A stretch of 64,000 nucleotides of DNA from contig JAHFLT010000001.1 of the NCBI GenBank assembly GCA_023264635.1, forward strand, positions 35,307-99,306, written 5' to 3'. Position numbers and translations under genes: made by a program. Each line of letters opens with the position of its first letter. The stretch's first letter is position 1. The notes under the pieces were generated by a model. That model ran no database searches. It was not told where the DNA came from and worked only from the letters and a program-made list of their open reading frames with translations. The stretch is from Candidatus Woesearchaeota archaeon (GTDB lineage: Archaea > Nanobdellota > Nanobdellia > Woesearchaeales > JAGVYF01). Of the stretch, positions 775-62,823 are shown piece by piece.

Positions 775-1030
775 TATTTCACCCACTTTTTTTTCTTTTT
801 CTCCTTTTTGTTTCTACGTTCTCTTTTCTTTCTCCAGCCTCTCTCCTTTCTCCTGTCTCTATAATTCTATCTTATCATCTCTCTCTGTGCCATCTCTAAT
901 ACGCATTCTGTTTATCACCATATGCTTCTGCATTTAAATGCTTTTTGGAGAGAATGCGTACAATCTCTCTTCACCAGTTTTAAGCAGTCTTTACGCAATC
1001 TCCAAGCAGTCTCTAGTAAAGATGCCATAT

Positions 1031-1292
1031 GCTCTGTAGAAAGTCTCGCTCTCGCTAGCCATTGCACCTCAGCTCGCATGTGCTGTTAATCTGCAGAGTG
1101 ACACAAAGGAGAACCGCTGTTCTCCTTGTGCAAGAAGCCTATGGCTTCTTTGCATTTCCCGGATGGAGCACAAAGAAATCTCGCAGATTTCTTGTGCAAG
1201 TTGCTTCGCAACTTTGCATCCCCTTTGTCACTTTTCCTGACTCTTGAAGGTGCTCGCCCTTAAGAGTGGCAATGGTACACTTTTTACAGAAC
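1031..1292. mobile_element. MITE-like non-autonomous element, type I, copy A
   Basis: About 262 bp, near-identical to copy at 5769..6030. Terminal inverted repeats GGCTCTGTAGAAAGT / ACTTTTTACAGAACC (right end has 2 mismatches). Flanking direct repeat GATGCCATA(T/G) at 1021-1030 and 1294-1302. Internal nested hairpins. Confidence 0.7.
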
Positions 1293-1338
1293 CGATGCCA
1301 TAGTAAGTTTTTTAATAGAATCAGATTTCCCATTATCC

Positions 1339-2106
1339 ATGAACATACCGTGCCCATACTGTCGCTATGATATAAGCGAAAAAGATATGCATCATAATAA
1401 TTATGCTCAGTGCGAGAAATGTCAGCTCCCTTTCCACAGGGAATGTTATGAGCTTAATGGAAAATGCATGTGTTTTGGCTGTGGAGGTAAGGCAGCTCTC
1501 CCCATTACGCAAGAATCGCAAAAATTACACCAAGAATCTGTAGACATCGTTGTGAGAAATCACTTTCTTGCAGCTCCAGATAAGGCTATCACAGCACACA
1601 TGCGTATTCTAGAGGATATTGTTACTGCCTATACAAAAGCAAGTGGAGAACATAATGCTAAAGTGCAGCATGCCATACAATCAGTCTGCAGTAATGCATT
1701 TCCCTCAACAATAACATCTCTCTACGTTTCTTATCTCACAGAATATAATCATTGTTGTGATGCGTATCAGAAGATAGCGACGAAAATGAAAGATGTAAAG
1801 CAGCCAGCAATTTTGGGAAATCCGTGCGATGTTTATTCAATGGGAGCCATGACAGGAGCAGCAGTAGGAGCTATTGTTAGTGCCTTGTTTGTCGGAGGAG
1901 GGGGATATCCCGCGTGGGACTATCTTATAAGTATGTTCATGGGCGCAGCTGTAACATGGTCTATGCGGCATCGTGCCAAAGAGTGGTATTCTGTAGAGAA
2001 GCTGTCAGCCGATTACCAGAAAGCTCACTTGCAGAAAGCGTATAAAAAAAAGCTGCTGAATCTTACTAAAAGATACGAACAAAAATTTCTCACTGCCCTT
2101 CCATAA
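1339..2106 (+). CDS. Zinc-ribbon (multiple CxxC) protein with C-terminal Gly-rich transmembrane segment, function unknown
   Basis: N-terminal CPYC...CEKC...CFGCGG motifs. C-terminal GAMTGAAVGAIVSALFVGGGG hydrophobic stretch. ORF of 255 aa. Confidence 0.45.
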   Translation: MNIPCPYCRYDISEKDMHHNNYAQCEKCQLPFHRECYELNGKCMCFGCGGKAALPITQESQKLHQESVDIVVRNHFLAAPDKAITAHMRILEDIVTAYTKASGEHNAKVQHAIQSVCSNAFPSTITSLYVSYLTEYNHCCDAYQKIATKMKDVKQPAILGNPCDVYSMGAMTGAAVGAIVSALFVGGGGYPAWDYLISMFMGAAVTWSMRHRAKEWYSVEKLSADYQKAHLQKAYKKKLLNLTKRYEQKFLTALP

Positions 2107-3460
2107 CCTTCATTACCGTCACAAGCACATCTTCTTTGAAATTACCCGCATAGAGTTGGACGCCTACAGGCACCCCATCAATCTTCCCAGCAGGTACAAC
2201 ACCTGCGCAAATCCCGGCAAGATTAGCAGGGATAGTGAATGCATCATAAGCATATGATGCTTCCGGGGATGGTATCTTTCTTAAGAGATGCGGCAGCTCT
2301 GGCGTTGTGGGCAATGCAATCACGTCTACTTCTTTGAATGCTTTCTCAAATTCTTCTTGTATTGCACGGCGTACTCGTAATGCTTTGCGGTAGTATCTCC
2401 CTTCATACTCTGCACAGCTTATCATCCTGCCACCTATGATGCGTCTCAGTACTTCTTCTTTGCATGATTCTTCAATGCGTTTCCCATATCTCCTTCCATC
2501 ATATTTTCTTGTCCCTGAGAAGAATTCTGTATACACAATGGGATAATACGACTCTACTGCCAATGCCACATACTTAAGGTCAATCTCTTTTAGTATAAGC
2601 TTCTGTTTCTTTGCAAAGTCCAGCACTTTTTCTTTGACTATCTTATAGATTTTTTTATCCTTGCATAGTTCCTCAAATACAGGAGAAAGCGCAATGGTCT
2701 TTGGTTGTTTTCCGAAGTGTGTGAATAGTGGCACCGACAGAGGATACATCATTGGATCATTGTCACTATATCCACTTATAACCTCAAGTAACAGTGCACA
2801 GCCATCTGTGTCAGGTGCGCATGGCGCAATTTGGTCAAGACTCATTGAAAGGTCTATAAGCCCATACCGCGACACTCTACCATATGATGGCTTTATGCCA
2901 ACAATACCACAATGCGATGCTGGATTTCGTATGCTTCCCCCAGTATCAGAACCCAGCGCCACATCACATAGCCCTGCAGCAACTGCGGCAGCGCTTCCTG
3001 AAGAAGAACCACCTGGAACATGCTTTGGTGATGTTGGATTTATTGTTGGGCCAAATGCACTTGTTTCTCCGGAGATACCACAGGCAAATTCATCCATATT
3101 AGTTATTCCTATAATGATTCCATCCTCTGCGAGTATTTTTTCAATCACATCTGCATTATATGTCCCGTAATAATTTTCGAGCGTTTTCGACGCACATGAT
3201 ATAGGCATTCCAATGACATTAATGTTCGCTTTTACTCCTACTGTCAGTCCGAATAGTTTCCCCACCTTTCCCTTTTTCCTCTTCCCATCAAGAGCGCGTG
3301 CTCTCTCCAGCGCTTCTTTCTCTGCTGTATAGAGAAATGCATTGATACGTGGATTCTCTTTTTTGATGAGTACAAGCTGCTGGTTCACATGCTCAATGCA
3401 TAACAACTTGCCTTCCTGTAATTGTGTGAGTAACTCTTTGGTTGCCATTAGTGTTACCAT
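2090..3460 (-). CDS. gatA: Glutamyl-tRNA(Gln)/Asp-tRNA(Asn) amidotransferase subunit A
   Basis: 456 aa. Amidase signature GGSSSGSAAAVAAG. Overlaps upstream gatC stop by 7 bp. Confidence 0.9.
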   Translation of the reverse strand: MVTLMATKELLTQLQEGKLLCIEHVNQQLVLIKKENPRINAFLYTAEKEALERARALDGKRKKGKVGKLFGLTVGVKANINVIGMPISCASKTLENYYGTYNADVIEKILAEDGIIIGITNMDEFACGISGETSAFGPTINPTSPKHVPGGSSSGSAAAVAAGLCDVALGSDTGGSIRNPASHCGIVGIKPSYGRVSRYGLIDLSMSLDQIAPCAPDTDGCALLLEVISGYSDNDPMMYPLSVPLFTHFGKQPKTIALSPVFEELCKDKKIYKIVKEKVLDFAKKQKLILKEIDLKYVALAVESYYPIVYTEFFSGTRKYDGRRYGKRIEESCKEEVLRRIIGGRMISCAEYEGRYYRKALRVRRAIQEEFEKAFKEVDVIALPTTPELPHLLRKIPSPEASYAYDAFTIPANLAGICAGVVPAGKIDGVPVGVQLYAGNFKEDVLVTVMKVMEGQ

Positions 3461-3750: not shown

Positions 3751-3754
3751 GAGC

Positions 3755-5140
3755 TTAGCATATCCTCCTTTTCAGCAGCTCCTTGACAGTGTCTGCTTTT
3801 GCTTTTCCTTTTGTCAAAGCCATGACTTTACCTATCAAGAAATTTAATGCCTTTTCTTCGCCAGCAAGATAATCCTTTACTGCTTCTGGATGTTCAGAGA
3901 CCACCTTTTGCGTAAGTTTACCTAACTCTTCTTCACTGCTTATAATGCCTAGTCCTTTTTGAGCTACGTATGCTCTCGGACTGAACGATTTCTCAATCAT
4001 CTGCTTGAGAAGCCCTTCTGCAGTCTGATCAGTAATTTCTTTTTTTACGACCATCTGCAGCAGCTCTGCAATATGTTTCTCATCAAACTCTACTTCCTGC
4101 AACGTTCGTTGTGTTACATTCATTATTTTCAGCAGCTCATGCCTGAGCCACTTTGCTGCGAGCAATGGGTCTACTGTCTTTGCAAGTTTTTCAAACAAAT
4201 CCGCAAGTGCGAGATCGCTTGCCAGGATTTTAGCATCCGTTGCTGATACTTTCATATTCTTGTATCGCTCAATCTTGATGTGCGGCTTCTCTGGAAGCAT
4301 CTTCTGGATGTTTTCCACAAGCGCATCAGTTATGTGAATTAATGGTAGATCTGGTTCCGGGATAAACATATAGTCAAGTGCAGTCTCTTTGGAGCGCATG
4401 AAGTGCGTCTTGCCATAGGTATCAGGAGGGCTTCTTGTGTGGGCAAAAACTTTTTCTCTCTGAGCTACTACCTCATGCTGCCTTTTTATTTCCCCGTCTA
4501 TTGCAAGCACGATAGTCTTAATTGAATTAACATTCTTGATCTCAACACGTGGGTGGTGCTCTGTGCTTACATTCACATCACATTTTATTCCCGCATTCTT
4601 ATTGACCGCTTTGAGATAAGATAATGTGGTCAGAAGGCTCTCCAGCCAATCTTTTACTTCTCCTGCACTTGTAAAATCAGGTTCAGTGACAATTTCAATC
4701 AGAGGATAGCCACTTCTGTTGTAATCCACAAGTCCTGTTTCAGGATCCCAACGTGCAGGATCCTCTTCCAAGTGACACTCCGTGATACCGACATCCAGAT
4801 ATTTCCCATGCTCACCTACTGGATGCGAGTACGTTCCCGAAATGGTGATCTGATATCCTTTGGGTAAATCAGGCCAGTCATAATGTTTTCGTTGAAAGAT
4901 AAGCTTTTTATTAATACTGCAGTCCAGCATTAATGCGCAAGTGACTACTTTTTCCACTGCTTCTTTGTTAGGCAACATGGGTTTTGAACCTGGCTGCCCT
5001 GTGCAGCGCGGGCAAACAGTTGTATTTGGTGCAGCATCTTGATCAACTGTGCATCGACAGAATAATTTCTGGTGAGTTTTGTGCATCGCCAGATAACCAT
5101 GAATCTCAAGCCCGATTCTTGCCATGACACTTTTCCCCAT
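3755..5140 (-). CDS. gatB: Glutamyl-tRNA(Gln)/Asp-tRNA(Asn) amidotransferase subunit B
   Basis: 461 aa. N-terminal MARIGLEIHGYL typical of GatB/GatE family. Start abuts stop of upstream gene at 5140. Confidence 0.9.
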   Translation of the reverse strand: MGKSVMARIGLEIHGYLAMHKTHQKLFCRCTVDQDAAPNTTVCPRCTGQPGSKPMLPNKEAVEKVVTCALMLDCSINKKLIFQRKHYDWPDLPKGYQITISGTYSHPVGEHGKYLDVGITECHLEEDPARWDPETGLVDYNRSGYPLIEIVTEPDFTSAGEVKDWLESLLTTLSYLKAVNKNAGIKCDVNVSTEHHPRVEIKNVNSIKTIVLAIDGEIKRQHEVVAQREKVFAHTRSPPDTYGKTHFMRSKETALDYMFIPEPDLPLIHITDALVENIQKMLPEKPHIKIERYKNMKVSATDAKILASDLALADLFEKLAKTVDPLLAAKWLRHELLKIMNVTQRTLQEVEFDEKHIAELLQMVVKKEITDQTAEGLLKQMIEKSFSPRAYVAQKGLGIISSEEELGKLTQKVVSEHPEAVKDYLAGEEKALNFLIGKVMALTKGKAKADTVKELLKRRIC

Positions 5141-5721
5141 TACACCTTCTCTTTCAGCTTAAGCTCAAAACAGACATCTTCCAGTTTCTTGAGGTCATAT
5201 TTGATGGAGTCAAATTTTCCGCGGAGTTCCCCATCCCTAATATCGAACTTCAAGAGCAGCTCATATAAACTGTCAAGAAAATCCTTTATGACAAACGGCT
5301 CTTTGTACTTTCCTTTGCTTGCTGCAGCGATTGCTTTCCGCGACAGTTCACCGGAAAGATCACACAGTCCAAGGAGATAATAATCGGTCTCTACTCCAAG
5401 CTCAGATCTCGTCATTAATTTGTGGTCTCGCACAAAGTGGTAGTAAAGCATTGCCTCTACATATTCCTGGATTGCAACCTTGTAGCTGCCTTGATGATAC
5501 ATTTTCTGATTCTTTTTAACATACTCATTCAAGGTCTTGAGCTGTTTCTGCATCTCTTTGACAAGCGTCTCTGCATCTTTCATATCATCACGATGCACAG
5601 CGTAAATTGTTTGTTTTGTCAGTTTAAGCACATCGCGGGATTTCTTGATTAGTTCCTCTCTCTGGCTGTCAAACTCCTGCGACTCTGTCAGCATATCTTC
5701 GAAATCATGTTTAGTTATCAT
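5140..5721 (-). CDS. Translin-family-like helical protein (start trimmed to first ATG outside the MITE)
   Basis: Listed ORF 5140..5817, but residues 1-16 are encoded by MITE copy B, so the first non-element Met at 5721 is taken as the start. YYHFVRDH...LLGLCDLSGEL resembles the translin YYRFHEHW core. Stop shares a base with the gatB start codon. Confidence 0.4.
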   Translation of the reverse strand: MITKHDFEDMLTESQEFDSQREELIKKSRDVLKLTKQTIYAVHRDDMKDAETLVKEMQKQLKTLNEYVKKNQKMYHQGSYKVAIQEYVEAMLYYHFVRDHKLMTRSELGVETDYYLLGLCDLSGELSRKAIAAASKGKYKEPFVIKDFLDSLYELLLKFDIRDGELRGKFDSIKYDLKKLEDVCFELKLKEKV

Positions 5722-5768
5722 GCAGAGCAACAGAAAAAGTGCATTATATATAGGTTTCTGTGGTGGAG

Positions 5769-6030
5769 GCTCTGTAGAAAGTCTCGCTCTCGCTCGCCAT
5801 TGTACCTCAGTTCGCATGTGCTGTTAGTCTGCAGAGTGACACAAAGGAGAACCGCTGTTCTCCTTGTGCAAGAAGCCTATGGCTTCTTTGCATTTCCCGG
5901 ATGGAGCACAAAGAAATCTCGCAGATTTCTTGTGCAAGTTGCTTCGCAACTTTGCATCCCCTTTGTCACTTTTCCTGACTCTTGAAGGTGCTCGCCCTTA
6001 AGAGTGGCAATGGTACACTTTCTACAGAGC
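5769..6030. mobile_element. MITE-like non-autonomous element, type I, copy B
   Basis: 262 bp. Perfect 15-bp terminal inverted repeats GGCTCTGTAGAAAGT...ACTTTCTACAGAGCC. Perfect 10-bp target duplication CTGTGGTGGA at 5758-5767 and 6031-6040. Confidence 0.8.
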
Positions 6031-6143
6031 CTGTGGTGGATGCTATGCGTGATGAGATGTTGGATGTGGTGGTGCTCAGTGATGATGCTGTGATAACGAC
6101 TCTGAGCAAAAGTTTATATCATACACCATGAATCACCAAGTGC

Positions 6144-6740
6144 ATGCAATTTTATAATGTAATAAGAGAATTCGTACTGACACTCGGTCTTTGCGAACCA
6201 GAAATAGAAGCAAGTGCGCCAAAAGAGAATAACAAAAAGAAGATATATCGATTCGACGAGAGTGAGGCACGCATCCGTGATACTGGTCTTCGTCGCCATC
6301 TCAGGCCGGTAGAGGCATTCTCTGAAATTTTTTCGGGAACCTCTATTGGAAAAGATATGCTTGAAGATTCTGGTGAATGGCTAAGCCTCGCATTTGAACG
6401 GACAGGAGAGAGTGTTACACTTTATCTGGATCCGAAAGGAATTAAATGGTGTGGTGAGGGGATTGAATGGGGCGGAGGAAAGTATACAGTTAGTGACAAA
6501 ATAAGCTACTCTAAGAAATACTCTTTCTCCATCCCGGAAAAATCGCTGCAAGTAATGCAATGCCCTAAAAATCTAGTCTCCCTTCTCTATGGTCACCATT
6601 TTGATGACTTTCCAGAGGAAGTGAAAACAGCAAAGATTTATTTTCCCCTGGATGGAATCTGGCCAGTTTGTAGAGGAAGTAATAATGTTAGCTATAACTT
6701 ATATTGCGCATATCTGGCTGCTTCTCGTGGGACAAGGTGA
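6144..6740 (+). CDS. Hypothetical protein
   Basis: 198-aa ORF with no recognisable motifs. Codon usage consistent with neighbours. Confidence 0.35.
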   Translation: MQFYNVIREFVLTLGLCEPEIEASAPKENNKKKIYRFDESEARIRDTGLRRHLRPVEAFSEIFSGTSIGKDMLEDSGEWLSLAFERTGESVTLYLDPKGIKWCGEGIEWGGGKYTVSDKISYSKKYSFSIPEKSLQVMQCPKNLVSLLYGHHFDDFPEEVKTAKIYFPLDGIWPVCRGSNNVSYNLYCAYLAASRGTR

Positions 6741-7056
6741 ATTGGTTGCTTATCTAAAATTGTCGGGTTTAATACCTTTAACTTTAGTTCGACAATTTTC
6801 TATCCAAAGAAATGCGAAGCATCTCTTGGACAAAGAAATCCATTCTGGATTTCTTTGTCCCGAAAACTCGCCTACAAAAGAGGAGCGAAAACCACGCACT
6901 TTAATGCGTGGAGAGTTCTGAGTCGGCGAGTTTTCGTTATTCCACTGCTTGCTCATGGTGATTCAATCCTTTTACTCTGTGAAGGAGAATTACCAGCAGA
7001 GTAGTAACTGAAAATTATTCCCACTTAAAATTTACCCAACATGAACTGACATGAGT

Positions 7057-7512
7057 TTACTCGACATACATTCTCAGTTTCGTTTTGTCTAACTTCCAGT
7101 CAGAAGGTAGTTTGTGTGTTCTCTTGCAATAATCAATAAGTCTGTTAAGCTTGCTTTGGGTTAAGATCAGACCACGTTGCGCTGGCTCATCATGCTTGTT
7201 CATTTCAAGATGAGCGGTGACATTCAGAATTTTTTTAATGAGTGCACATATGTCTTCAGGCAGCTGTGGGAGCACATTCTTTTCTTTTAGTATCTGTGAG
7301 AGCTTCTTGCCAGTGACTGTTTTAACATCCGGAAGCCCGTATGCATCACGCAAGTACAACCCAATTTGAGAAGGTGCCTTGCCTGCTTTTGCCAGCTTTA
7401 CTGCCAACAGCTCTATTTCCTTTGGCTGATAACGTTGCCATGCTGGATTGCTTTGTGTAATTGGTTTTTTTGAACCTGACTTGCCTCTTGCCTTAGAATA
7501 CATTCGTGCCAT
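7057..7512 (-). CDS. rps15: Ribosomal protein uS15 (archaeal S15P/S13e)
   Basis: 151 aa beginning MARMYSKARGKSGSKKP. Typical archaeal S15 length and N-terminus. Confidence 0.88.
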   Translation of the reverse strand: MARMYSKARGKSGSKKPITQSNPAWQRYQPKEIELLAVKLAKAGKAPSQIGLYLRDAYGLPDVKTVTGKKLSQILKEKNVLPQLPEDICALIKKILNVTAHLEMNKHDEPAQRGLILTQSKLNRLIDYCKRTHKLPSDWKLDKTKLRMYVE

Positions 7513-7683
7513 TGTATTTTCCTCCAGTCTACGTAAGCCTTGACCGGCGTAGCTGTTAATGTACAGAAATAGGGACTCTTTTAAAAATATTACTCTTTTT
7601 TTTACCTATACTCATTACAAGTACTTACATATACCACATATACGTGAGATATATATTATATCTTTGCAAGAAATAAGGAAGTT

Positions 7684-9990
7684 ATGAACCGCGAAAAGTG
7701 GGAAGTTTCCTTAGAAGACTTAGTCTGGATAGCAGATCCAACAGAGTTCACATTTGCAAATACAGTTGAGATACATCCACCTGTTAATCCTATTGACATT
7801 GTCAAAGGCCAACATGATGCCAAACAGACGCTTCTGTCAGCAATAAAACTTCGCCAAAATGCAATCCTTATAGGGCCTGCTGGGTGCGGCAAATCACTGC
7901 TGGCAAAAACAGTGGCTGAACAATTCTCACTGGAAAATGCGAACAAGATAAAGCTCTATGACCAATGCCTCATCTATAATTTGGAGAATGAATTTGAACC
8001 GGATGTGATTAGCCTTCCGACGCCACTCGGAAAGCAATTTGCCGAAGACTTCAGGACATTCATAAAATATATTCGTGCAGGTGCCCACTACAGGCCTACT
8101 GGCCATGGAAATCCTCAGGATACGAAAATAACGTTCCGCACACATTCATTTTTTTCCACAACTGAATATTCAGGAACGCTAAAGCAACTTTTGGAAGGTG
8201 TGGCCAAGCAGAATGGGTTGACTATAGTGCCTGATGCTGATGTACTTTTCAAACATAGTATCAGGATGCTTGATGCGCCAGTGCTTACTGATGGAAAAGA
8301 TTACTTTACGTTGCGAATCTTGTGCCCTCATTATGAATTTGACGAACCTCGCAATGGAAAATCATTTATCCTCGACAATTTAGTGCAGACCTATAAATAT
8401 TATCCTAAAGTGCTTCGCTATTTTGGTGATATGGCTCGTGAAGTTCGTGAAACTGAAGAAATGAAAGGATTATTTGACATGGAGCAGCCATTTATAAAAA
8501 AAATGCGCGAAGAGAAATACATGATTAACGTTATTGTCAATAACGCTGAGACCGTTGGAGTCCCTGTGGAATATATTGAGAATCCGAGTATACAGAACAT
8601 TATCGGAGAAGCTGGCCATGATGCATATAATCTCCGCCCAATGCATATGCGTATCAAACCAGGCAAGCTCCATCGCGGTAATGGGGGTATCGTCATTATA
8701 GATGAGCTTATCACTGTCTTGCAGGATCAATACATGCGTAACTTTTTGCTTACTGTACTTAACGACAAGCAAGGCCGGATCGGGGGTGGCGCTGGCTTGA
8801 GTGGTGGAGGGACAAGCGCTGGCGTTGAGACAAAGCCTGTTGCAGCGGATTGCATCGTCATTGGATGCGCAAATGACGATGTATTCAAGTACATGACAGA
8901 CAAGATTGCCAGACGTTTCCAGCACAAGGTGAAATTCCATACAACTATGGACAACACATTGGAAAATAGGATGGGATACGCAGAATTTATTGCTTATGAA
9001 ATCAATAAATACAATAATGACTCCTCAAATCAAGTAAAGCTTTCTCATTGTACTCCTGAAGCAGTTGCTGCTGTTGTCGAGTGGGGCGTTCGCTTTGCCC
9101 AGAATGCTGCGCATGGCAAGAAAAAGCTCACTAATGTGCTTGATCCAGTGGCATTACTTGTGAAATCAGCAGCGATGAAGGCATCACAAGAGAATGCACC
9201 ACTTGTTGAGCGTATCCATGTCCAAGCTGCTCGCGAGGAGTTGCGGCGGTTGTCGACACAGATGCAGACAGACTATCTTACTTATATTAATGAGGGTCTC
9301 ATATCCATAGAGGTGGATGGTTTCCGAGAGCGTATAGTTAACGGGCTTGTTGTTATTAAAGATAACTATGGACTTGTTGCATATGGATTTCCTACACGAT
9401 TAATAGCTACAGCATCGCAAGGCAAAGGCGGATTTCTCAGCAGTGAAAAGGAGGCCGGGCTTTCAGGAAAAATTATGCTGAAAACGCATGAAATAATTAA
9501 GACTTACTTTAATGCAACCTATGGGAAAGCATTGGCAAAAGTAAATTTATCAGTCAGTTTCGCACAGAGCTATTCATCGATAGATGGCGATAGCGCATCG
9601 ATAGCGACTGTCATCGCACTTAAAAGTGCTCTTAGTGGCATGCCTGTAGATCAAGGACTGGCTGTTACAGGTTCGATGAATGAGCTGGGAGAAATCCAGC
9701 CAATAGGCGGCGTCAATGAGAAGATAGAGGGATTCTATGCGGTTTGTAAGCAAAAAGGATTCACCAGAAAGCAAGGTGTCATCATTCCCCCGAGCAATGT
9801 TCCGGATCTAATGTTAGCAAAAGATGTTATAGATGATGTCTGCGCTGGAAACTTCCATGTGTATTCTGTCAAACATCTGGATGAAGCAGTGGAGCTTATG
9901 TTTGCCAAGCCAGCACAGGACGTTGACAGATGCATACGGAAAAAGCTTGAGGAATACTGGAGGGAAGACAGTGTCACGGGTAAACGCTGA
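7684..9990 (+). CDS. Soluble LonB-like AAA+ serine protease with about 250-aa insertion between Walker A and Walker B
   Basis: Walker A GPAGCGKS, Walker B GGIVIIDE. C-terminal Lon protease domain DGDSASIA (Ser) and GGVNEKIEG (Lys). No hydrophobic transmembrane segment in the insert, unlike canonical archaeal LonB. RBS-like AGGAAG upstream. Confidence 0.8.
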   Translation: MNREKWEVSLEDLVWIADPTEFTFANTVEIHPPVNPIDIVKGQHDAKQTLLSAIKLRQNAILIGPAGCGKSLLAKTVAEQFSLENANKIKLYDQCLIYNLENEFEPDVISLPTPLGKQFAEDFRTFIKYIRAGAHYRPTGHGNPQDTKITFRTHSFFSTTEYSGTLKQLLEGVAKQNGLTIVPDADVLFKHSIRMLDAPVLTDGKDYFTLRILCPHYEFDEPRNGKSFILDNLVQTYKYYPKVLRYFGDMAREVRETEEMKGLFDMEQPFIKKMREEKYMINVIVNNAETVGVPVEYIENPSIQNIIGEAGHDAYNLRPMHMRIKPGKLHRGNGGIVIIDELITVLQDQYMRNFLLTVLNDKQGRIGGGAGLSGGGTSAGVETKPVAADCIVIGCANDDVFKYMTDKIARRFQHKVKFHTTMDNTLENRMGYAEFIAYEINKYNNDSSNQVKLSHCTPEAVAAVVEWGVRFAQNAAHGKKKLTNVLDPVALLVKSAAMKASQENAPLVERIHVQAAREELRRLSTQMQTDYLTYINEGLISIEVDGFRERIVNGLVVIKDNYGLVAYGFPTRLIATASQGKGGFLSSEKEAGLSGKIMLKTHEIIKTYFNATYGKALAKVNLSVSFAQSYSSIDGDSASIATVIALKSALSGMPVDQGLAVTGSMNELGEIQPIGGVNEKIEGFYAVCKQKGFTRKQGVIIPPSNVPDLMLAKDVIDDVCAGNFHVYSVKHLDEAVELMFAKPAQDVDRCIRKKLEEYWREDSVTGKR

Positions 9991-10003: not shown

Positions 10004-10543
10004 ATGGAGAAGCAATCAAAATTCCATACATTCCGTTTTCTTCTGGTTGCGTTCACAGCATATTTTGCAATAAATTGGTATGTTAAGAAGAGCGATGAGC
10101 CGTATAAAGAACCAGCATCGTTGTATGGCAGTCTTGAAGAAGCTATTGCTGGCCAGCTGCCCAGATATGGTTATGCTGCGGTGAAGATAGATGATACTAT
10201 TGGACCATATGACCCAGTCATAAAGGGAAAACAGATGCTCGGCTATGTCCATGATGATGCAGATACATTGCAGCTAGATGGGAAAGATATAGGCTACATC
10301 GTTCACGGTGTTGTCTATAATGCTGCTGGTAGAAAAGTGGCAAGATTGACAACAGGAGCTGTAGGTTATGAGATTTATTCCTATGATAACAAGAAACTGG
10401 GAACACTGACAGAAAAAAAACTTTTGAATTCTTCTGGTGCTGTGCTCGGAACGCTAGGTCCAAAGGCTGCTGTCGTTATGGACAATGGAGATAACTTAAC
10501 AGGGATTATCACAGGATATGATTATTCACGGAAGAATCTGTGA
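10004..10543 (+). CDS. Membrane-anchored protein with Tyr/Gly-rich repeats, co-operonic with Lon-like protease
   Basis: ATG 13 bp after the Lon stop, in frame with listed ORF 9833..10543. N-terminal FRFLLVAFTAYFAINWY transmembrane helix. Repeated G-Y/V motifs. Stop lies inside the target duplication of MITE copy C. Confidence 0.45.
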   Translation: MEKQSKFHTFRFLLVAFTAYFAINWYVKKSDEPYKEPASLYGSLEEAIAGQLPRYGYAAVKIDDTIGPYDPVIKGKQMLGYVHDDADTLQLDGKDIGYIVHGVVYNAAGRKVARLTTGAVGYEIYSYDNKKLGTLTEKKLLNSSGAVLGTLGPKAAVVMDNGDNLTGIITGYDYSRKNL

Positions 10544-10549
10544 GAGAAG

Positions 10550-10690
10550 GCTCCATCCAAAAATTCTCGCTCTCACTCGGCTCAGCGGCTTCTCGCCTTT
10601 GCATTTCCCAGATATCATCCCTTTGTCAGCACAAAATGAGCTACTGCTAAAGCTCGACCTTAGGCTGCTGAGCGCTTTTTTGGATGGAGC
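10550..10690. mobile_element. MITE-like non-autonomous element, type II, copy C (shares termini with the IS at 26799..27981)
   Basis: 141 bp. Termini GCTCCATCCAAAAAT...TTTTTTGGATGGAGC match the IS terminal inverted repeats. Perfect 10-bp target duplication GTGAGAGAAG at 10540-10549 and 10692-10701. Confidence 0.8.
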
Positions 10691-10849
10691 CGTGAGAGAA
10701 GAAACGAATAATGGGGAGAAACAAACTTTATTCTAATAGACAGCTTACACTAAAAAAAATCCCTCCCCGTTTGGGGAGAGTTTTTTCCTCAGAACTCAAA
10801 TCGGGGGTAAGAGGAGGAACATGAAAAAAAAAAGGAAAAAAAATTCCCA

Positions 10850-13717: not shown

Positions 13718-14482
13718 TTATATAAAGTACCTAACTGCATTTGTGAAAATCTGTAAACCGGCACCTTCTTTTGGCAGGTTTTTAGTCCACAGAGGATGTT
13801 GGTATGTGTCAATGAATCGCTCAGGATGTGGCATTAATCCGAAGATTCTGCCACTCTCATCACAAATTCCGGCAATATCATCTAATGAGCCATTAGGATT
13901 ATAAGGAAATTCTCCTTTGGCAGAAAATCCATTCTTCGCATAGCGCAGGGCAATCATATCACGCTTAGTCAATTCGTTCACTGTATTATCTGACGCATAG
14001 AATCTTCCTTCTCCGTGTGCAATCGGTAACTCTATCTTGTCTATTCCCTGCGTAAAAATGCACTTTGATGAGCCAATGAGCTCAACCCATCTACATTCAT
14101 ACCGTGCACTTGTGTTGTGCGTCAATGCCACAGTCCGTGCGCCGTATTCCCCAGTAATGGCAGGAAGCAGCCCGAGGTTAGTCATCACCTGAAATCCGTT
14201 ACATATACCTATGATTAATTTGCCTACAGCAATGAACTGCAACAGTTCCTCCCACATAGTGTTGCGCAATCTGTTCGCCAAAGCCTTGCCTGATCCAGTA
14301 TCGTCTCCATAAGAAAATCCTCCGGGAAATGCTAAGAGGTGATATGTCTCTAATTTTTTTTTATTCTCGATTAATTCGGTGATATGCATCTGTTCTGTCA
14401 GAGCTCCAGCTCGTTCGAAGGCATATTTGGTCTCTTCATTGCAATTGATTCCATACCCAGTTAGCACAAGTGCTTTTACCAT
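13718..14482 (-). CDS. purQ: Phosphoribosylformylglycinamidine synthase, glutamine amidotransferase subunit
   Basis: 254 aa. Class I glutamine amidotransferase (ICNGFQ Cys, HPER His region). Overlaps purL stop. Confidence 0.85.
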   Translation of the reverse strand: MVKALVLTGYGINCNEETKYAFERAGALTEQMHITELIENKKKLETYHLLAFPGGFSYGDDTGSGKALANRLRNTMWEELLQFIAVGKLIIGICNGFQVMTNLGLLPAITGEYGARTVALTHNTSARYECRWVELIGSSKCIFTQGIDKIELPIAHGEGRFYASDNTVNELTKRDMIALRYAKNGFSAKGEFPYNPNGSLDDIAGICDESGRIFGLMPHPERFIDTYQHPLWTKNLPKEGAGLQIFTNAVRYFI

Positions 14483-17343
14483 TTATTAAACCTAACCTTA
14501 TACACCCTTTCAAGTGCAGTTAGAGTGGTATTAATGACAAGCTTGCTTCCATCGCGTACAAAAAACATATGTGGCGTAACGTACCCTATACGGAAATACA
14601 TACACTCGAGCATTTTCTCAAAGGCGCCTGCATTCTTCTGTGAAACACTTACAATGAATCGCCCGGGTGATTCTGAGAATAGTGTTTTATACTGTGGCAA
14701 ATGTAGTTGGTTTATGTCACCATGAACGCCTTTTCTCCCAGCGATTGCACATTTTGCCAGACTTACAGCCAGCCCACCTAATCCAACAGCGTGTGCACTT
14801 TCAACCAGACCTTGCTCGATTGCTTTCTCGAGTTTGCCATAAAGTTGAATTGTTTCATCTAACCTGACCATTGGAACATTCTTGCCGACAACATCATTCA
14901 TTGCATAATACTCTGAGCCGCCCAATTCATCTCTTGTTTTTCCGATAATATAAAGGACATCTCCTGATTTTTTGAAATCCATACTGATACATTTTCTGAT
15001 ATCAGAAATAATACCGATAGAGGAAATAAGTATCGTCGGTGGGATAGAAAGGGATATTTTATTTTCATATTCATCAAATCCTCTGAAATCATTATGCATG
15101 CTGTCCTTTCCGGATATGAAGGGGGTACCATACATTACAGCAGTATTATAGCATGCTTCAGCTGCACGTTTCAGCTGGCCCAATCTTTTTGGATCGTTAG
15201 GACTGCACCAGCAGAAATTGTCCAGCAGTGCTGTCTGTTCCAGCTTTCCACCAACAGCAATTATATTTCTAACTGCATAGTCAATGGCACAGGCAGCCAT
15301 CCAGTATGCGTCTATATCCCCATACGATGGAAAAATGCCCTGTGATAATGCAATTCCTCGATAGGAATCTAATAACGGCCTCGCCACAGTAGCATCCGCA
15401 TTAACCCTTCCTTTTCCAATGAGTGGTTTTAGCACAGAGCCACCCTGAACTTCATGATCATACTGCCGAGAGATAAATTCACGGCTGCATATGTTTGCAC
15501 GGTTGAGCATTTCTGTTAACACGTGTGTCAAATCTTTCGGCACTTTCAGTATGGGCTCTCTGTGCCTCGCAAGTTCATCGGTAGAAGCTACTTTCTTTTT
15601 GGGTAATCCATTGTGCAGAAAATCTAGTTCGAGGTCCATCACTGTTTCATTGCCATACTTTACAGTACATTTTCCACTGTGTGTAAATTTCCCGATAGTC
15701 GTTGCCTCTACTCCGTGCTTTTTCATTACACTAAGAAATGCCTCTACTCTCTCAGGAGGCACAGCAATTGTCATACGTTCCTGCGATTCACTCACCCAGA
15801 GCTGCCATGGCGCCATGCCAGCATATTTTGTCGGTATATTTTCCAATTGGACAAAGCAGCCATTGCTCTCTTTTGCCATCTCTGCAATAGAGCAGGACAA
15901 TCCACCAGCACCGTTATCTGTAATGCTATTATAAAGTCCTCTTGCTTCAAGCAAGGCGTCTGCCATTTTTTTCTGGGTGATTGGGTCTCCTATTTGCACT
16001 GCAGTAGCTGGACTTCCTGCATTGAGCGCTTCTGAAGAGAATGTTGCACCGTGTACCCCATCCACTCCAACTTTACCCCCTATCATCAAGATGTAGTCTT
16101 CGGGCAGTGCCTTTTTTTCGTGACTTGGTTTTCCTGCAACAGTTCGCGGGATGAACCCCACAGTACCTACAAAAACCAATGGTTTTGCACGATACTGTTC
16201 ATTAAAAAGCATAAATCCCTGTGTAGTGGGAATGCCTGAGCAGTTTCCACCAACACGCACTCCTTCAATAACTCCTTCCATGATTCTTTTTGGTGATAGC
16301 ATCAGAACATTTTTTGTGCGATAAAGTTTTTTATTATCTTCGGGTATTCCGAAACAGAAGCCGTATGTGTTGATAATGGGTTTTGCGCCAGTTCCAAAGC
16401 CAAGACAATCACGATTAACACCAAGGATACCTGTGATAGCACCTCCGAAGGGATCCAATGCAGACGGACTGTTATGGGTCTCTACTTTATGTGTAACAAG
16501 ATACTTGTCATCAAAAACTAGTGCGCCGGAATTGTCAACGAAAACAGATGGACAAGTCACATGTCCCCACTTCATGTTCAGTATCCTTTCTGTTGCTCCT
16601 TGGATATACGTCTTGAACAATCCTTCTCTATTATTCATTTGTGCTGCAAAAATTCGGTGCTTACAGTGCTCAGACCATGTTTGTGCAAGGGATTCAAGTT
16701 CAACATCAGTTGGCTTCCTTCCTTTGTTTCGGAAATAGTTTTGAATGGCTTTCATCGCATCTCCATCAAGAGCAAGAGGACCATTGATTCCCTTATTGCC
16801 TATTGCAACGAGTGCAGCATCGCTCACGTCCAAGTCAATGAGTGCTGCTGCAGTGGATTGTAATGGCATTTGTAAAGATACTTTTGGGATAGTAATGCAC
16901 AACGGCTCGTTTCTCTTCCTTATCGTAATTTTGTTAATAAGCGGATTGGCGAATTGGGTAGCTATTTTTTGGATCTCACTATATGTTCCACCAACAAGAT
17001 ACATTGTTTGTGAAGAATAGACATTCACTGGCATGCACAGGCAATCCTCAATTGTTTGGTGTGCAGTGGCGCCAATATTATCAGTAACTCCGGGCAAGAA
17101 TCCAACATCTACAACCCATTCAAAGTTGTGTATGCAGTAGTCATCAATGCTATACTTTTCTATAACCGGATTAATGAACAGCAAAGCACATTGCTCGAGT
17201 TGTTCCTTGAAGAGATTTTTATCTATTGTATATGTATCAGTCAATGCGATGATTCTGGCTTCTATGCCCAAACCAGTTATCTTTCTTTCTCTCATTGCTG
17301 CACGTGTATCTGTAATTATGGGAAAGACTTCAATACGGTGCAT
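14476..17343 (-). CDS. purL: Phosphoribosylformylglycinamidine synthase PurL with two N-terminal PurS-like domains (PurS-PurS-PurL fusion)
   Basis: Listed ORF extends to 17490, but its first 31 codons are MITE copy D, so the start is taken at the next ATG, 17343 (MHRIEVF). N-terminal about 150 aa carry two PurS-like units ending NPVIEKYSI and NPLINKITI. PurL core follows. Confidence 0.8.
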   Translation of the reverse strand: MHRIEVFPIITDTRAAMRERKITGLGIEARIIALTDTYTIDKNLFKEQLEQCALLFINPVIEKYSIDDYCIHNFEWVVDVGFLPGVTDNIGATAHQTIEDCLCMPVNVYSSQTMYLVGGTYSEIQKIATQFANPLINKITIRKRNEPLCITIPKVSLQMPLQSTAAALIDLDVSDAALVAIGNKGINGPLALDGDAMKAIQNYFRNKGRKPTDVELESLAQTWSEHCKHRIFAAQMNNREGLFKTYIQGATERILNMKWGHVTCPSVFVDNSGALVFDDKYLVTHKVETHNSPSALDPFGGAITGILGVNRDCLGFGTGAKPIINTYGFCFGIPEDNKKLYRTKNVLMLSPKRIMEGVIEGVRVGGNCSGIPTTQGFMLFNEQYRAKPLVFVGTVGFIPRTVAGKPSHEKKALPEDYILMIGGKVGVDGVHGATFSSEALNAGSPATAVQIGDPITQKKMADALLEARGLYNSITDNGAGGLSCSIAEMAKESNGCFVQLENIPTKYAGMAPWQLWVSESQERMTIAVPPERVEAFLSVMKKHGVEATTIGKFTHSGKCTVKYGNETVMDLELDFLHNGLPKKKVASTDELARHREPILKVPKDLTHVLTEMLNRANICSREFISRQYDHEVQGGSVLKPLIGKGRVNADATVARPLLDSYRGIALSQGIFPSYGDIDAYWMAACAIDYAVRNIIAVGGKLEQTALLDNFCWCSPNDPKRLGQLKRAAEACYNTAVMYGTPFISGKDSMHNDFRGFDEYENKISLSIPPTILISSIGIISDIRKCISMDFKKSGDVLYIIGKTRDELGGSEYYAMNDVVGKNVPMVRLDETIQLYGKLEKAIEQGLVESAHAVGLGGLAVSLAKCAIAGRKGVHGDINQLHLPQYKTLFSESPGRFIVSVSQKNAGAFEKMLECMYFRIGYVTPHMFFVRDGSKLVINTTLTALERVYKVRFNKW

Positions 17344-17398
17344 ACCCACCTGGGGAAGAACAACTACATAAAAATTGTGGATTTCAGAGGTAAAACAG

Positions 17399-17538
17399 GT
17401 TCCATCCAAAAAAGCGCTCAGCAGCCTAAGGTCGAGCTTTAGCAGTAGCTCATTTTGTGCTGACAAAGGGATGATATCTGGGAAATGCAAAGGCGAGAAG
17501 CCGCTGAGCCGAGTGAGAGCGAGACTTTCTACAGAGCC
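17399..17538. mobile_element. MITE-like hybrid element, copy D
   Basis: One end GGTTCCATCCAAAAAA (type II / IS-like terminus, 1 mismatch). Other end ACTTTCTACAGAGCC (type I terminus). Imperfect flanking repeat TAAAA(A)CA(A)G. Lies 55 bp upstream of purL start. Confidence 0.65.
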
Positions 17539-17636
17539 ATAAAAACAAGTAGATTTATAAATAGCACATTATTCTCTGCTCCCATAGAAGGTTTACGAAT
17601 TCTTCGTAAATACCTTCAAATTAGGTGAAAAACAAC

Positions 17637-26561: not shown

Positions 26562-26753
26562 TGATTCTTTGCGTAGAAGGAAATGATACCCTGCGAAATA
26601 ATCATCATCTTCCCATTCCTGTGCATGTTCAGCATATACAGAATTTTCCATTTCCAGACGGGCAAAACAAATTGAGCATAAGAACATCAAGCTTTCCTCA
26701 AATGCAACTTCTTGGATCGCCTGCCTGCGGCGGCAAACCTGGCAGTTACGCAT
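26553..26753 (-). CDS. Possible small zinc-ribbon protein (CxxC...CxxC)
   Basis: Listed ORF 26553..26810 takes its first codons from the IS terminus. Internal Met at 26753 gives a 66-aa CQVC...CSIC protein. Weak support. Confidence 0.2.
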   Translation of the reverse strand: MRNCQVCRRRQAIQEVAFEESLMFLCSICFARLEMENSVYAEHAQEWEDDDYFAGYHFLLRKESLR

Positions 26754-26798
26754 TTTTCTTACTAGTGGAATGTTGCTTTTAAGGTTTTCTACAGCTTT

Positions 26799-27981
26799 GG
26801 CTCCATCCAAAAATAGATTAACTTCCGAGTTCTAAGTAAAATAAAATGGGCAAGCCGAATATTCGGCTCAACCCACAAGTAGAATCGGTTCGTAACCGAA
26901 TTCTGCTCAATAAGGCCACTGAGATTCTTCTCTCTTGCGCCTTGTTGCTTCCCGAACCTTCTCACGTGGGTAAGGGAAGAATACCATACGATTACCGCGT
27001 CGTATTGGTATTATGTATACTCCGTATCCTGCTCCGCAAGAGTTATGCGGACTATGAAACGGAGATGCGGTCAGATAAGAGGTTGCATGAGATGTTAAAA
27101 ATTGACAAGCTACCATGTAAAAGCACCGTCAATAATTATGCATCTCAATTTACGTTGACCTTCTTATCCGAGTTCAACAAGAAGCTTATAGACAACTGGA
27201 TTAAAAAACCTGTCGATTTGCTTCTTGATGCTTCAGGCATTAGGCTAGTGGGCAGAAGCATCTGGTTCTGCCTCAAAACCAGACAAAAGATTCAGAAGAA
27301 AGACTGCGATAAAATACACATAGCAGTAAGTTTATGCAGCTTACTTATAGTTAACTTCAGAATCTCTAATTCTAATAGGAATGACTCACCATTCCTCAGA
27401 AAACTTCTTAGGCCATTTAGTTCTTTGGGTTTATTTCTCGTCGATAAAGGTTACAGCAACGAAACAAATGCCAATTTTGTGGCAAATAAAAAAGGTGCAT
27501 TCTTTTCACCATTTAAGGTGAATGCAAGACCTTCGGCATTTAGTCTTTGGAAAAAACTATACACACTATGGGAAACCTTCCATAGTCTTTGTGAAGGGAT
27601 TTATCACCAAAGATCCAAAGTGGAAGCTGTTTTTTCCGCATTGAAAAATAGGTATGAAGACCAGCTTTACTCGACGAGATGGTACATGATGAGACGGGAA
27701 ATGGCAATGCGGTTTATTGCCTATAACGTGAGAATTATTGTGGGAATACAAATAGCAAGAGAGAAGAACATACCTTTGTGGGTTAGAGCCTAAAAAAACG
27801 GTTTCTGCCAAGAAAACGTCATAGCGATAGCTCTATTCATTTTGCCGTTACTGGCGCCGTACAGGCAGGAATTGTCCCTTCGGAAATGCTTGCGAGACTT
27901 TTCTACCAGAAAATCCATCGATTACCTATTGCAACGGCAAAACCTTTAACGAAGGTTAGAACTCATTTTCTGGATGGAGCC
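26799..27981 (+). mobile_element. Insertion sequence (DDE transposase, IS4/IS5-superfamily-like) with terminal inverted repeats and target-site duplication
   Basis: Left terminus GGCTCCATCCAAAAAT (26799-26814). Right terminus reverse-complements to GGCTCCATCCAGAAAAT (27965-27981). Flanking direct repeat CTACAGCTTT at 26789-26798 and 27981/27982-27990 (one-base ambiguity). Single transposase ORF inside. Confidence 0.8.
26846..27793 (+). CDS. DDE-type transposase
   Basis: 315 aa. Candidate catalytic residues in LLLDASGIRL, FLVDKGYSNE and VEAVFSALKNRYED. Typical DDE_Tnp_1 arrangement. Confidence 0.8.
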   Translation: MGKPNIRLNPQVESVRNRILLNKATEILLSCALLLPEPSHVGKGRIPYDYRVVLVLCILRILLRKSYADYETEMRSDKRLHEMLKIDKLPCKSTVNNYASQFTLTFLSEFNKKLIDNWIKKPVDLLLDASGIRLVGRSIWFCLKTRQKIQKKDCDKIHIAVSLCSLLIVNFRISNSNRNDSPFLRKLLRPFSSLGLFLVDKGYSNETNANFVANKKGAFFSPFKVNARPSAFSLWKKLYTLWETFHSLCEGIYHQRSKVEAVFSALKNRYEDQLYSTRWYMMRREMAMRFIAYNVRIIVGIQIAREKNIPLWVRA

Positions 27982-28132
27982 TACAGCTTTTTTGTGGGTT
28001 TGCCTTCAGTTCGTTCCGCTTGCAACGGTGAACCCCGGAAAAGACTGAACCGACGTTCTCTGTGTTGAACACAGATGCTTTTTCTTATACCCTCATGAGG
28101 CGTAGACTCCTTCGTTTTTTCCCATACCGAAG

Positions 28133-28526: not shown

Positions 28527-28631
28527 CGGGGTGGATGGGATTTGAACCCATGACAAACCGCGCATGGAAGGAAAGCTTCCACACTTCACGGGCTTCAGCC
28601 GTGTGCTCTCCCAGGCTGTAGCTACCACCCC
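28527..28631 (-). tRNA. tRNA-Phe (GAA) with about 30-nt intron-like insertion between anticodon arm and T arm
   Basis: Reverse strand folds as acceptor GGGGTGG/CCACCCC, D arm GCT..AGC, anticodon stem CACGG/CCGTG with loop CTGAAGC, and T arm ATGGG-TTCAAAT-CCCAT. About 35 nt separate the anticodon stem from the T stem instead of about 5. Confidence 0.65.
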
Positions 28632-38300: not shown

Positions 38301-38431
38301 GCAGGGGTAGCGAAGCCTGGTCAAACGCGCAGGACTCAGAGCACATCACCTGGCTGAGTGCGATACTTAAGACCAGGTGTGAGAGATCCTGTCTCTTAGT
38401 GGGTTCGAGGGTTCAAATCCCTTCCCCTGCA
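38301..38431 (+). tRNA. tRNA-Leu (CAG) with about 45-nt canonical-position intron
   Basis: Acceptor GCAGGGG/CCCCTGC. Anticodon stem CAGGA/TCCTG with loop CTCAGA then insertion after position 37. Long variable arm. T arm GAGGG-TTCAAAT-CCCTT. Discriminator A. No encoded CCA. Confidence 0.7.
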
Positions 38432-41926: not shown

Positions 41927-41943
41927 TTCGTTTCCTCCGGTTT

Positions 41944-44480: not shown

Positions 44481-44581
44481 GATGGTTGAATAGATTACAG
44501 CTTATATTTAAGATTTTCCTAAGAAAGCTTTATATACCACAATAAAATTCCAAGAGTCACTTTTTAAGAAGGAGGAAGAAA

Positions 44582-45868: not shown

Positions 45869-45880
45869 GAAGGGTGACTG

Positions 45881-46189: not shown

Positions 46190-46288
46190 GAGTACACCTT
46201 TTCTTTTCAGTTTTTTTTTCACCCGAAAGAGTTAAATAGTCGGGATATTTAAATTATATAAAAAAGGCTTTTAAAAAAAAGGTGAAGT

Positions 46289-47323: not shown

Positions 47324-47350
47324 CTATTTTTCTTACCAATTAAAATTTAC

Positions 47351-48358
47351 TTAGTTTCTTTTTTTTTTGATTTTCTTTGATAACTTTGCTACTTCTTCCA
47401 GCTCTGCTGCTGCCTGCTGGATTGCCTGGTCATTAGCTTCCAATGTCGGAATTGGTTCTGCTCCTTTCTCAGACTCCATAATACCGGGAAGGAATATGTC
47501 TGTAATGCCTTTGTGTGGCTCATCTTCTGCTTCCTCAATGTTCTCTATAAGAAAAAGCTTACGTTTCTCTTCTTCTTTCTGTGTTTTTTTACTGAAAGCG
47601 TGTTTCAATGAAAGCTTTATGGCATGGTCGTTGCATACAGATAAAACATATTTTGGATTATTTTGTTGTTCACGGATGATATGTTTTAGTAGGGCTTCGT
47701 CAAATGGCTCAATGCCATTCCCACCAAGCGCCTCAATCCTAAGTTGCAGGAATTCCTTAGTCTCAGCAAAACTCAGACCATGCAATACGATGCCGAGCTT
47801 ATCTTGTCCTAAGGTAGATACAATGCTTCTACGCATCTCATCTATGGGACCAGCTACAATAAGTTGTGTGCGGAGGGGTGAATCAAAGATATGTTTAAGT
47901 ATCAGAATGTCTGGTTTTGAGATTTGATGTGCTTCATCCAAAAGGATAATCATACTTTTCGCGTGCTGCCGTGGTGTTAGAAACTCAACAACATTACCTA
48001 TATGCAGTTTTCTCCATGGCCTTGTTAACCATCTTTCAAAAAAATTAAGTTGAGGATACACCAAAGTCTTTATGAACTCGTGCTCAGTAAGATTCCTGGC
48101 ATTCACATAAATGACGCAGAATCTGTTCTTGTAATTCTGCAATTGGTTGCGCAGCCAGCGTAATAAGGTCGTCTTCCCAAGCCCTTCCTCACCAAGAAGG
48201 GTACCGTATTTGTAGTTTTCTATGAGAAAAAGATTGAGACGCTGGCGTTCCTTTTCATATCCTACAACAAAATTTTCTACTGGTTCGAATATCTTGTCCT
48301 GGAATGGATTATTACGCCATCCCAATGCCTTATCCCACTCAAGAACAAATTGCCGCAT
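47351..48358 (-). CDS. Archaeal-type AAA ATPase (Arch_ATPase/PF01637-like)
   Basis: FVVGYEKERQRL...LLGEEGLGKTTLLRWL Walker A. ILLDEAH Walker B. Confidence 0.55.
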   Translation of the reverse strand: MRQFVLEWDKALGWRNNPFQDKIFEPVENFVVGYEKERQRLNLFLIENYKYGTLLGEEGLGKTTLLRWLRNQLQNYKNRFCVIYVNARNLTEHEFIKTLVYPQLNFFERWLTRPWRKLHIGNVVEFLTPRQHAKSMIILLDEAHQISKPDILILKHIFDSPLRTQLIVAGPIDEMRRSIVSTLGQDKLGIVLHGLSFAETKEFLQLRIEALGGNGIEPFDEALLKHIIREQQNNPKYVLSVCNDHAIKLSLKHAFSKKTQKEEEKRKLFLIENIEEAEDEPHKGITDIFLPGIMESEKGAEPIPTLEANDQAIQQAAAELEEVAKLSKKIKKKRN

Positions 48359-48402
48359 GTGTCATTAAGCAAATGGGTTTTTATAAACCTTTCCTAGAGG
48401 AA

Positions 48403-48618
48403 GCTCCATCAAAAATTCTCGCTTCCTCCTGGCTCAGCAGCTTCTCGCCTTTGTATTTCAGGCGATAGCTGACACAAAGGAGAACTATTGTTCTCCTTGT
48501 GCGAGAAGCCTATGGCTTTTTTGCATTTCCCGGACGTCGTCCCCCCATTGTCAGCACAAAATGGGCTACTGCTAAGGCTCGACCTTAGGTTGCTGAGCGC
48601 TTTTTTTTGATAGAGTCC
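48403..48618. mobile_element. MITE-like composite element, copy E (degenerate termini)
   Basis: Ends resemble type II / IS termini (GCTCCATCAAAAAT ... TTTTTTTTGATAGAGTCC). Centre carries the type I hairpin core (GTGACACAAAGGAGAAC...GTTCTCCTTGTG). Sits 44 bp upstream of the ATPase start. Confidence 0.6.
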
Positions 48619-48657
48619 TAGGGAAGTAATAAAAAAAAAGAAAAGAGAAAAAAAATC

Positions 48658-62819: not shown

Positions 62820-62823
62820 ATAC

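Follow-up and report, generated by a model that had tools for sequence, protein, structure and literature searches.

Scattered through the 64,000 nt of Candidatus Woesearchaeota DNA analyzed here (contig JAHFLT010000001.1, positions 35,307 to 99,306; hereafter the window) are several short repeats that resemble miniature transposable elements with inverted repeats (MITEs), and with them a resident insertion sequence (IS). This raises the question of whether the repeats are one family, whether they descend from the IS, and which transposase moves them. The overall explanation that we favor, and consider probable, is a MITE family with two subfamilies, type I and type II, in which type II would be moved by the resident IS and insertion would take place at the edge of promoters. 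Repeat scan, self-BLAST and a family-profile nhmmer search of the window agreed on five related elements (A–E; Table 1) and no further copies. A first-pass annotation had proposed five MITE-like copies, and self-BLAST and nhmmer bear this out, with coordinates right to within 1–2 nt: as a group the elements are small (141–264 bp, within the size of less than about 500 bp that characterizes MITEs), lack coding capacity, and have terminal inverted repeats (TIRs) and clean target duplications of fixed length. They are dispersed (5 in 64 kb), and all are intergenic. The genes around them are ordinary housekeeping ones, which encode a RING-finger protein, translin, LonB, FtsZ, PurL, a zinc-finger protein and an AAA ATPase. 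Their concatenated stop-free frames had no match among 5.8 billion proteins, and tblastn found no transposase similarity in the MITEs.

We set the element boundaries at the symmetric ends GGCTC...GAGCC and compared the flanks base by base. The relations among the copies are largely those that the first-pass annotation had described. A and B are near-identical, differing at 7 positions over 264 bp (97–98% identity), 3 of them within the termini of A. The termini of C are those of the resident IS, with 16/16 positions matching at the left end and 15/16 at the right. D has one terminus of each type: its body is the reverse complement of C with 1 mismatch, and its other end is a type I TIR. E has C-like ends, which are degenerate type II ends, and a core shared with type I, in which 65 nt are 92% identical to A and B. 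A perfect inverted run of 15 nt is found at the ends of B and of C; the ends of A and E are decayed, and those of D are unlike each other. By alignment and by nhmmer, type I and type II are homologous along their full length, and both keep the same order of motifs: TCTCGCTCTC beside the left terminus, CTCGCC(A/T)TTGTA, TTTGCATTTCCC, CCC(C/T)TTGTCA and GCTCG(A/C)CCTTA. A–E are one structured MITE family in two subfamilies, set apart by their TIRs. Both subfamilies have a common skeleton of subterminal TCTCGCTCTC, TTTGCATTTCCC, GCTCGMCCTTA and long internal stems, with 0, 1 or 2 hairpin modules.

The target-site duplications of A, B and C are perfect and 9 bp long, as is that of the resident IS, and the chance probability of a 9/9 match between flanks is about 5e-6 per element. 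Relatives of the IS likewise duplicate 9 bp (TATCTCCTT, TGGCTTCCC and TAGACGAAG). The first-pass annotation was right that B and C have perfect duplications and that the MITEs and the IS duplicate the same length; it had put that length at 10 bp, a reading that arises because the target base beside the duplication, often G or C, equals the terminal base of the element. For A, the duplication is indeed present, and is perfect rather than near-perfect. That of D had been called imperfect, and its flanks (GGTAAAACA and ATAAAAACA) match at only 6/9 positions, while those of E (CCTAGAGGA and CCTAGGGAA) match at 7/9 under one parse.

Between the shared motifs, the copies differ in their content of a double-hairpin module: C lacks it, E contains M1 alone, and M1 and M2 stand in tandem in A and B. 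Each module consists of two adjacent hairpins whose outer stems, CACAAAG/CTTGTG and CAAG/CTTTG, are identical in M1 and M2, as are the linkers. The inner stems differ yet stay complementary (GAGAAC/GTTCTC in M1 and AAATCT/AGATTT in M2; AAGCC/GGCTT and TTGC/GCAA, respectively). This comparison, which rests on three independent lineages of elements, could reflect either compensatory divergence or palindrome cassettes held in a fixed frame. Long stems are predicted in all copies, with folding z-scores of -8.0 (B), -4.5 (C) and -5.9 (E). An internal GGATGGAGC in A and B equals the type II terminus; we rejected it as a true type II end, and it is explained as a junction made by module M2.

The strong folding, the modular double hairpins and the divergent yet complementary inner stems would also be expected of structured repeats selected by the host, for instance small RNA genes, terminators or sites for protein binding, that had spread by recombination or duplication and whose likeness to IS ends was incidental. 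In addition, type II ends close in T5–T8 runs which, as read from the sequence, could terminate archaeal transcription. Such an origin nevertheless seems very unlikely to us, given three perfect 9-bp duplications that lie exactly outside perfect inverted termini and have the same length as for the IS. No Rfam family matches any MITE copy, and a structural role and mobility can coexist.

With the elements read as MITEs, D and E tell different stories, where the first-pass annotation had taken both for recombinants. In D, the change from type II to type I falls at positions 17515–17524, in TCTCGCTCTC, a 10-nt string common to both subtypes, and its flanks show no clean duplication. D is a genuine chimera and fits ectopic recombination or template switching between the subfamilies, and it would be a recent one, formed within this shared string. 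Given its mismatched ends, it is probably immobile. C, on the other hand, corresponds to an E-like element that lacks the segment between two TTTG(C/T)ATTTC direct repeats, and therefore one module, so that E is better read as an old form of intermediate architecture than as a recent recombinant.

We then asked what kind of element the resident IS is. Its transposase, encoded by the sole open reading frame (ORF) of the element, matches Pfam PF01609 (E 6e-17; 62.6 bits, cut-off 23). Among NCBIfam models, NF033579 (transpos_IS5_2) comes out best, but its 88 bits fall short of the cut-off of 140, and tblastn against plasmids showed 24–30% identity to annotated IS5-family transposases. The IS also has the traits of the IS903 group, namely its length of 1183 bp, a single ORF of 315 aa, GGCTCC ends and a 9-bp duplication, and its relatives are alike in these respects. 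For comparison, IS903 has a single DDE_Tnp_1 transposase of about 310 aa, a length of 1.06–1.2 kb, inverted repeats that begin with GGCT, and a 9-bp duplication; we confirmed an IS903B reference on plasmid Rts1 (locus L149, 1201–2257, inverted repeat GGCTTTGTTGAATAAATC). BLASTP against IS903 gave 28% identity over only 65 aa, in the first catalytic region (E 1e-4). With the family model below its cut-off and the IS903 protein match marginal, the resident IS appears to be a distant IS5-family element with IS903-like traits. It differs from IS903, an element of enterobacterial plasmids, in its archaeal host, in this marginal protein similarity, and in a target motif that on one side runs into a TATA box. 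Homologues of the transposase number more than 500 in metagenomes; most lie on contigs of 1–2 kb, and some are labelled Woesearchaeota or Nanoarchaeota. We retrieved about 60 IS relatives of 1.17–1.21 kb. Three of the retrieved loci deserve mention in their own right. In L129 (about 1–40), two copies of an IS relative stand exactly 9 nt apart (right inverted repeat, TCTTTTCTA, left inverted repeat), an arrangement that is an insertion set directly against the end of another copy. The same 9-mer, TCTTTTCTA, lies between the IS relative and the end of an rve-type IS in L128 (about 1020–1040). In L131 (1–20960), the neighbors of an IS relative include ParA, ParB, a family B DNA polymerase, a DUF87 ATPase and a serine recombinase; the region resembles plasmid or virus DNA, and could carry the IS between DPANN hosts.

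The relatives make it possible to ask which ends the transposase is likely to accept. All of the approximately 60 relatives, even at an amino-acid identity of 64%, keep the end GGC-N-N-CATCCAAAAAA, and positions 6–16 of the terminus (CATCCAAAAAA) are invariant across them. Type II ends match those of the autonomous IS at 26799–27981, and it is plausible from this comparison that the resident transposase accepts type II as a substrate. We propose that this DDE transposase, making a 9-bp staggered cut, would move type II (C, E and one end of D) in trans. The type I terminus finds no such autonomous counterpart. It agrees with the IS terminus at only 4/11 of the invariant positions 6–16, and it was absent from the approximately 60 relatives and from all other retrieved loci; a more distant relative (L148, 48% identity) has a GGCCCCTACATCC-type end and not a type I end. 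Because of this disagreement, and since no relative has such an end, the resident IS is unlikely to move type I, which (in A, in B and at the second end of D) would instead depend on a related transposase from outside this window. Type I does share with the IS its GGC start, the 9-bp duplication and a position next to promoters, and this IS-like placement is the best available indication that its transposase may be of the same kind. The earlier proposal that one transposase family mobilizes all five copies is plausible for type II, by termini and duplication length, and for type I has indirect support in its start, duplication and choice of target.

We considered two other schemes. In one, a resident transposase tolerant of divergent ends would move all five elements, type I included; both end types do begin with GGCTC, have T8 and A11–13 in common, make 9-bp duplications and lie next to promoters. 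We judge this unlikely in view of the invariance of positions 6–16 among the relatives, at which type I agrees so poorly, and of the lack of any relative with a type I-like end. In the other, the classical route for MITEs, the five elements would be internal-deletion derivatives of the resident IS, as the first-pass annotation had suggested in part and as the identity of type II ends with IS ends would allow. This we hold to be highly improbable, since similarity between the IS and the MITEs is confined to the terminus of 15–16 nt, both by self-BLAST and by local alignment of the IS head and its 188-bp tail with every copy, and since it is instead the interiors of type I and type II that are homologous to each other. 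Derivation from the IS is accordingly not supported, as similarity ends with the 16-bp terminus; the self-alignment and base-by-base flank check that the first-pass annotation had proposed gave that shared terminus together with the three 9/9 duplications of A, B and C. One type I-like string in the 3′ non-coding tail of the IS (GCGAGACTTTTCTACCAGA, 27893–27912, with two indels) scored within the range of shuffled sequences and is probably a chance match.

Along with the length of their duplications, the elements of both types share a position relative to host promoters. We assembled 77 distinct IS and MITE ends from the window and from the IS relatives (loci L121–L152 and L174–L202). Read outward from the ends, the 9-nt duplication often runs straight into RAAASS, after which comes a TATA-like box (TTTAWATA). 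A TATA-like hexamer starts at +16, +17 and +18 in 17, 16 and 18 cases, respectively, and in 0–3 cases at each other position from 1 to 54. The motif falls at 15–18 in 29/77 ends, where about 2 are expected from the rate at positions 19–54. These 29 comprise 16/40 left IS ends, 9/27 right IS ends and 4/10 MITE ends (A_R, B_L, D_R and E_L), so that four of the five MITEs have a TATA-adjacent end; the left end of the IS in the window (GAAAACC-TTAAAAGC) narrowly misses the motif. These hexamers also have a peak, within the window, 29–32 nt upstream of the first ATG of ORFs, from which we conclude that they are host promoters of leaderless genes. An ATG follows 29–31 nt downstream in four of the five adjacent motifs (A_R, B_L, E_L and the IS left end), and the element terminus lies near -46 from the start codon, just upstream of the B recognition element (BRE). 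The IS family and the MITEs would therefore insert with their 9-bp duplication abutting the upstream edge of a BRE/TATA promoter, leaving promoter and genes intact. The left flank of B and the right flank of D are 53% similar (P about 2e-4), which we considered as a trace of a longer element and rejected: both are promoters at equal spacing. Next to the left end of the IS, we observed an uncalled 66-aa ORF (26553–26753, minus strand) with a CxxC...CxxC pattern, which starts 29 nt past the abutting TATA-like box and is probably a real small zinc-ribbon gene.

The source of this bias may be recognition of sequence or structure, tethering by TBP/TFB, or survivorship, and so sharp a peak speaks against survivorship as the sole cause. 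A sequence preference in the bases that flank the duplication has precedent in the family, because IS903 prefers WTTYA-N9-TRAAW (PMC2577343), where the flanks here read TTTY-N9 and N9-RAAA. We put forward tentatively, as a possibility that we hold in somewhat more doubt than belief, that active guidance brings the IS family and the MITEs, type I included, to the upstream edge of archaeal promoters, as a safe-haven strategy in a compact DPANN genome. The 9-bp staggered cut would then be placed 6 nt upstream of the TATA box, beside the BRE, either by a transposase that reads RAAASS-TTTAWATA, which resembles its own terminus, or by one that senses DNA bent by TBP/TFB. If true, this would be a first among archaeal DDE elements and would imply a whole clade of promoter-seeking transposases. 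A full-text literature search turned up no archaeal IS reported to insert in a promoter-directed way, which is weak evidence of absence.

Several observations weigh against the explanation that we favor. D and E are without a clean duplication, and no transposase bounded by the type I terminus was found in the window, among the approximately 60 IS relatives or at the other retrieved loci. Promoter adjacency could come in part from the survival of harmless insertions in a compact genome. The organism was met in one sample only (SRR14366766/ERZ27297570), and because of this the argument for mobility is carried by the target duplications alone; a search for empty sites in sister strains by way of identical neighboring proteins returned the same sample and no other. 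Nor did the MITE family appear in JGI metagenomes, IMG/VR or the retrieved loci: a specific left-end pattern for both subtypes gave 0 matches in JGI metagenomes; in IMG/VR, the hairpin core and the type II core each gave 0 and the type I terminus 20 chance matches that lacked a paired end or transposase; and no MITE copy of either subtype was seen at about 60 IS-bearing loci. A GTDB scan with the over-degenerate pattern GGCTCN{9,11}TCTCGCTCTC yielded 120 loci, all chance matches in unrelated bacteria. A literature search for the terminal sequences found unrelated primers only.

Dependence on one sample also invites the suspicion that the copies are collapsed or chimeric repeats produced by metagenome assembly. 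The window is a metagenome contig, and many contigs with IS relatives have non-matching flanks of the kind typical of repeat-induced chimeras. Even so, we regard an assembly artefact as exceedingly improbable: each copy has unique flanking genes and, in A, B and C, its own duplication; A and B differ at 7 sites; and an independent Logan assembly of the same run is 100% identical to the window over 6004–8373 and 58681–64000 (contigs L153 and L132). The former contig reproduces the right junction of B and ends 28 nt into that element, where a repeat present in several copies would be expected to interrupt an assembly.

Table 1. Positions in the window of the MITE copies, their hairpin modules and target duplications, the resident IS, and adjacent promoter-like motifs.
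Feature	Position	Strand	Type or match	Details
MITE copy A	1030–1293		type I, 264 bp	termini decayed: T at position 1; right end GGTTCTGTAAAAAGT
MITE copy B	5768–6031		type I, 264 bp	perfect 15-nt TIR GGCTCTGTAGAAAGT
MITE copy C	10549–10691		type II, 143 bp	termini GGCTCCATCCAAAAAT / GGCTCCATCCAAAAAA
MITE copy D	17398–17538		chimera, 141 bp	ends: type II at 17398, type I at 17538
MITE copy E	~48402–48618		~217 bp	degenerate type II ends, type II-like skeleton, one hairpin module
Double-hairpin module M1	A 1102–1160; B 5840–5898; E 48473–48531			
Double-hairpin module M2	A 1169–1223; B 5907–5961			
Duplication of A	left 1021–1029, right 1294–1302		9/9	GATGCCATA
Duplication of B	left 5759–5767, right 6032–6040		9/9	TGTGGTGGA
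Duplication of C	left 10540–10548, right 10692–10700		9/9	GTGAGAGAA
Duplication of resident IS	26790–26798 and 27982–27990		9/9	TACAGCTTT
Resident IS	26799–27981	+	1183 bp	inverted repeats GGCTCCATCCAAAAAT / GGCTCCATCCAGAAAA
DDE transposase, 315 aa	26846–27793	+	Pfam DDE_Tnp_1 (PF01609)	sole ORF of IS
Promoter-like GTAAG-TTTTTTAATAG	1303–1318	+		abuts right duplication of A; ATG 1339, 29 nt downstream
BRE/TATA-like GAAACC-TATATATAAT	5743–5758	-		abuts left duplication of B; translin ATG 5721, 31 nt from TATA start
Promoter-like AGTAGA-TTTATAAATAG	17548–17564	+		beside type I end of D
Promoter-like GAAAACC-TTAAAAGC	26775–26789	-		abuts left duplication of IS; zinc-ribbon ORF start 26753, 29 nt downstream
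Promoter-like AAAGG-TTTATAAAAAC	48377–48392	-		abuts left flank of E; ATG 48358, 29 nt downstream

The host is a Woesearchaeota-like DPANN archaeon, and FtsZ from the window is 80–85% identical to proteins named Candidatus Woesearchaeota or Nanoarchaeota. Elsewhere in the window, Rfam identified two intron-containing tRNA genes that ARAGORN missed (28527–28631, minus strand, and 38301–38431, plus strand), the first of which is about 550 bp from the resident IS. Two paralogues of a LonB-like AAA protease (7684–9990 and 24105–26561) are no more than 17 kb apart. For PurL (14476–17490, minus strand) and translin (5140–5817, minus strand), the longest ORFs run into D and B, respectively. The true starts of both proteins lie downstream (for translin, the ATG at 5721), and the elements thus create an annotation trap.

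We compared the family with known systems of short repeats and targeted elements. Pneumococcal BOX and Neisseria Correia elements are short intergenic repeats with a variable number of hairpin modules that lie near promoters and may affect transcription. The elements described here are likewise short, intergenic, close to promoters and variable in their number of hairpin modules; they have no sequence relationship to BOX or Correia elements, and differ from them in being linked to a DDE transposase, through the terminus of a cognate IS and through clean 9-bp duplications. Insertion at transcription-initiation sites is known from retroelements whose integrases are tethered by transcription factors, with Ty3 at Pol III start sites, Tf1 at Pol II promoters and Dictyostelium TRE near tRNA genes. 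The IS and MITEs resemble these in that a short, fixed distance separates them from a transcription-initiation element and in sparing genes in a compact genome, but here a DDE insertion sequence is involved, and the bias could come from DNA sequence, from bending by TBP/TFB or from survivorship. As prokaryotic MITEs, the elements are typical in their length of 141–264 bp, non-coding sequence, TIRs, duplications, intergenic location, hairpins and, for type II, ends matching an autonomous IS; they are set apart by a homologous skeleton that bears two end types, by a natural chimera that combines both, and by 0–2 double-hairpin units. A large survey gives the occurrence of MITEs as 20% of archaeal genomes and places a Woesearchaea genome among the densest, at 105 MITEs/Mb, to which the 5 elements in 64 kb found here may be compared (PMC11602168).

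The MITE family itself is ordinary selfish DNA, and it is the swapping of ends and the placement next to promoters that are worth following. The presence of two end types on one skeleton, together with the chimera D, indicates that a non-autonomous element can swap its ends and so change the transposase that it parasitizes. Of more use as a lead is how sharply 29 independent IS and MITE ends are placed, 15–17 nt upstream of TATA boxes. Should target choice be the cause, this would amount to testable promoter-directed transposition in archaea, would explain how mobile DNA persists in streamlined DPANN genomes, and would provide a free map of promoters for uncultured lineages.

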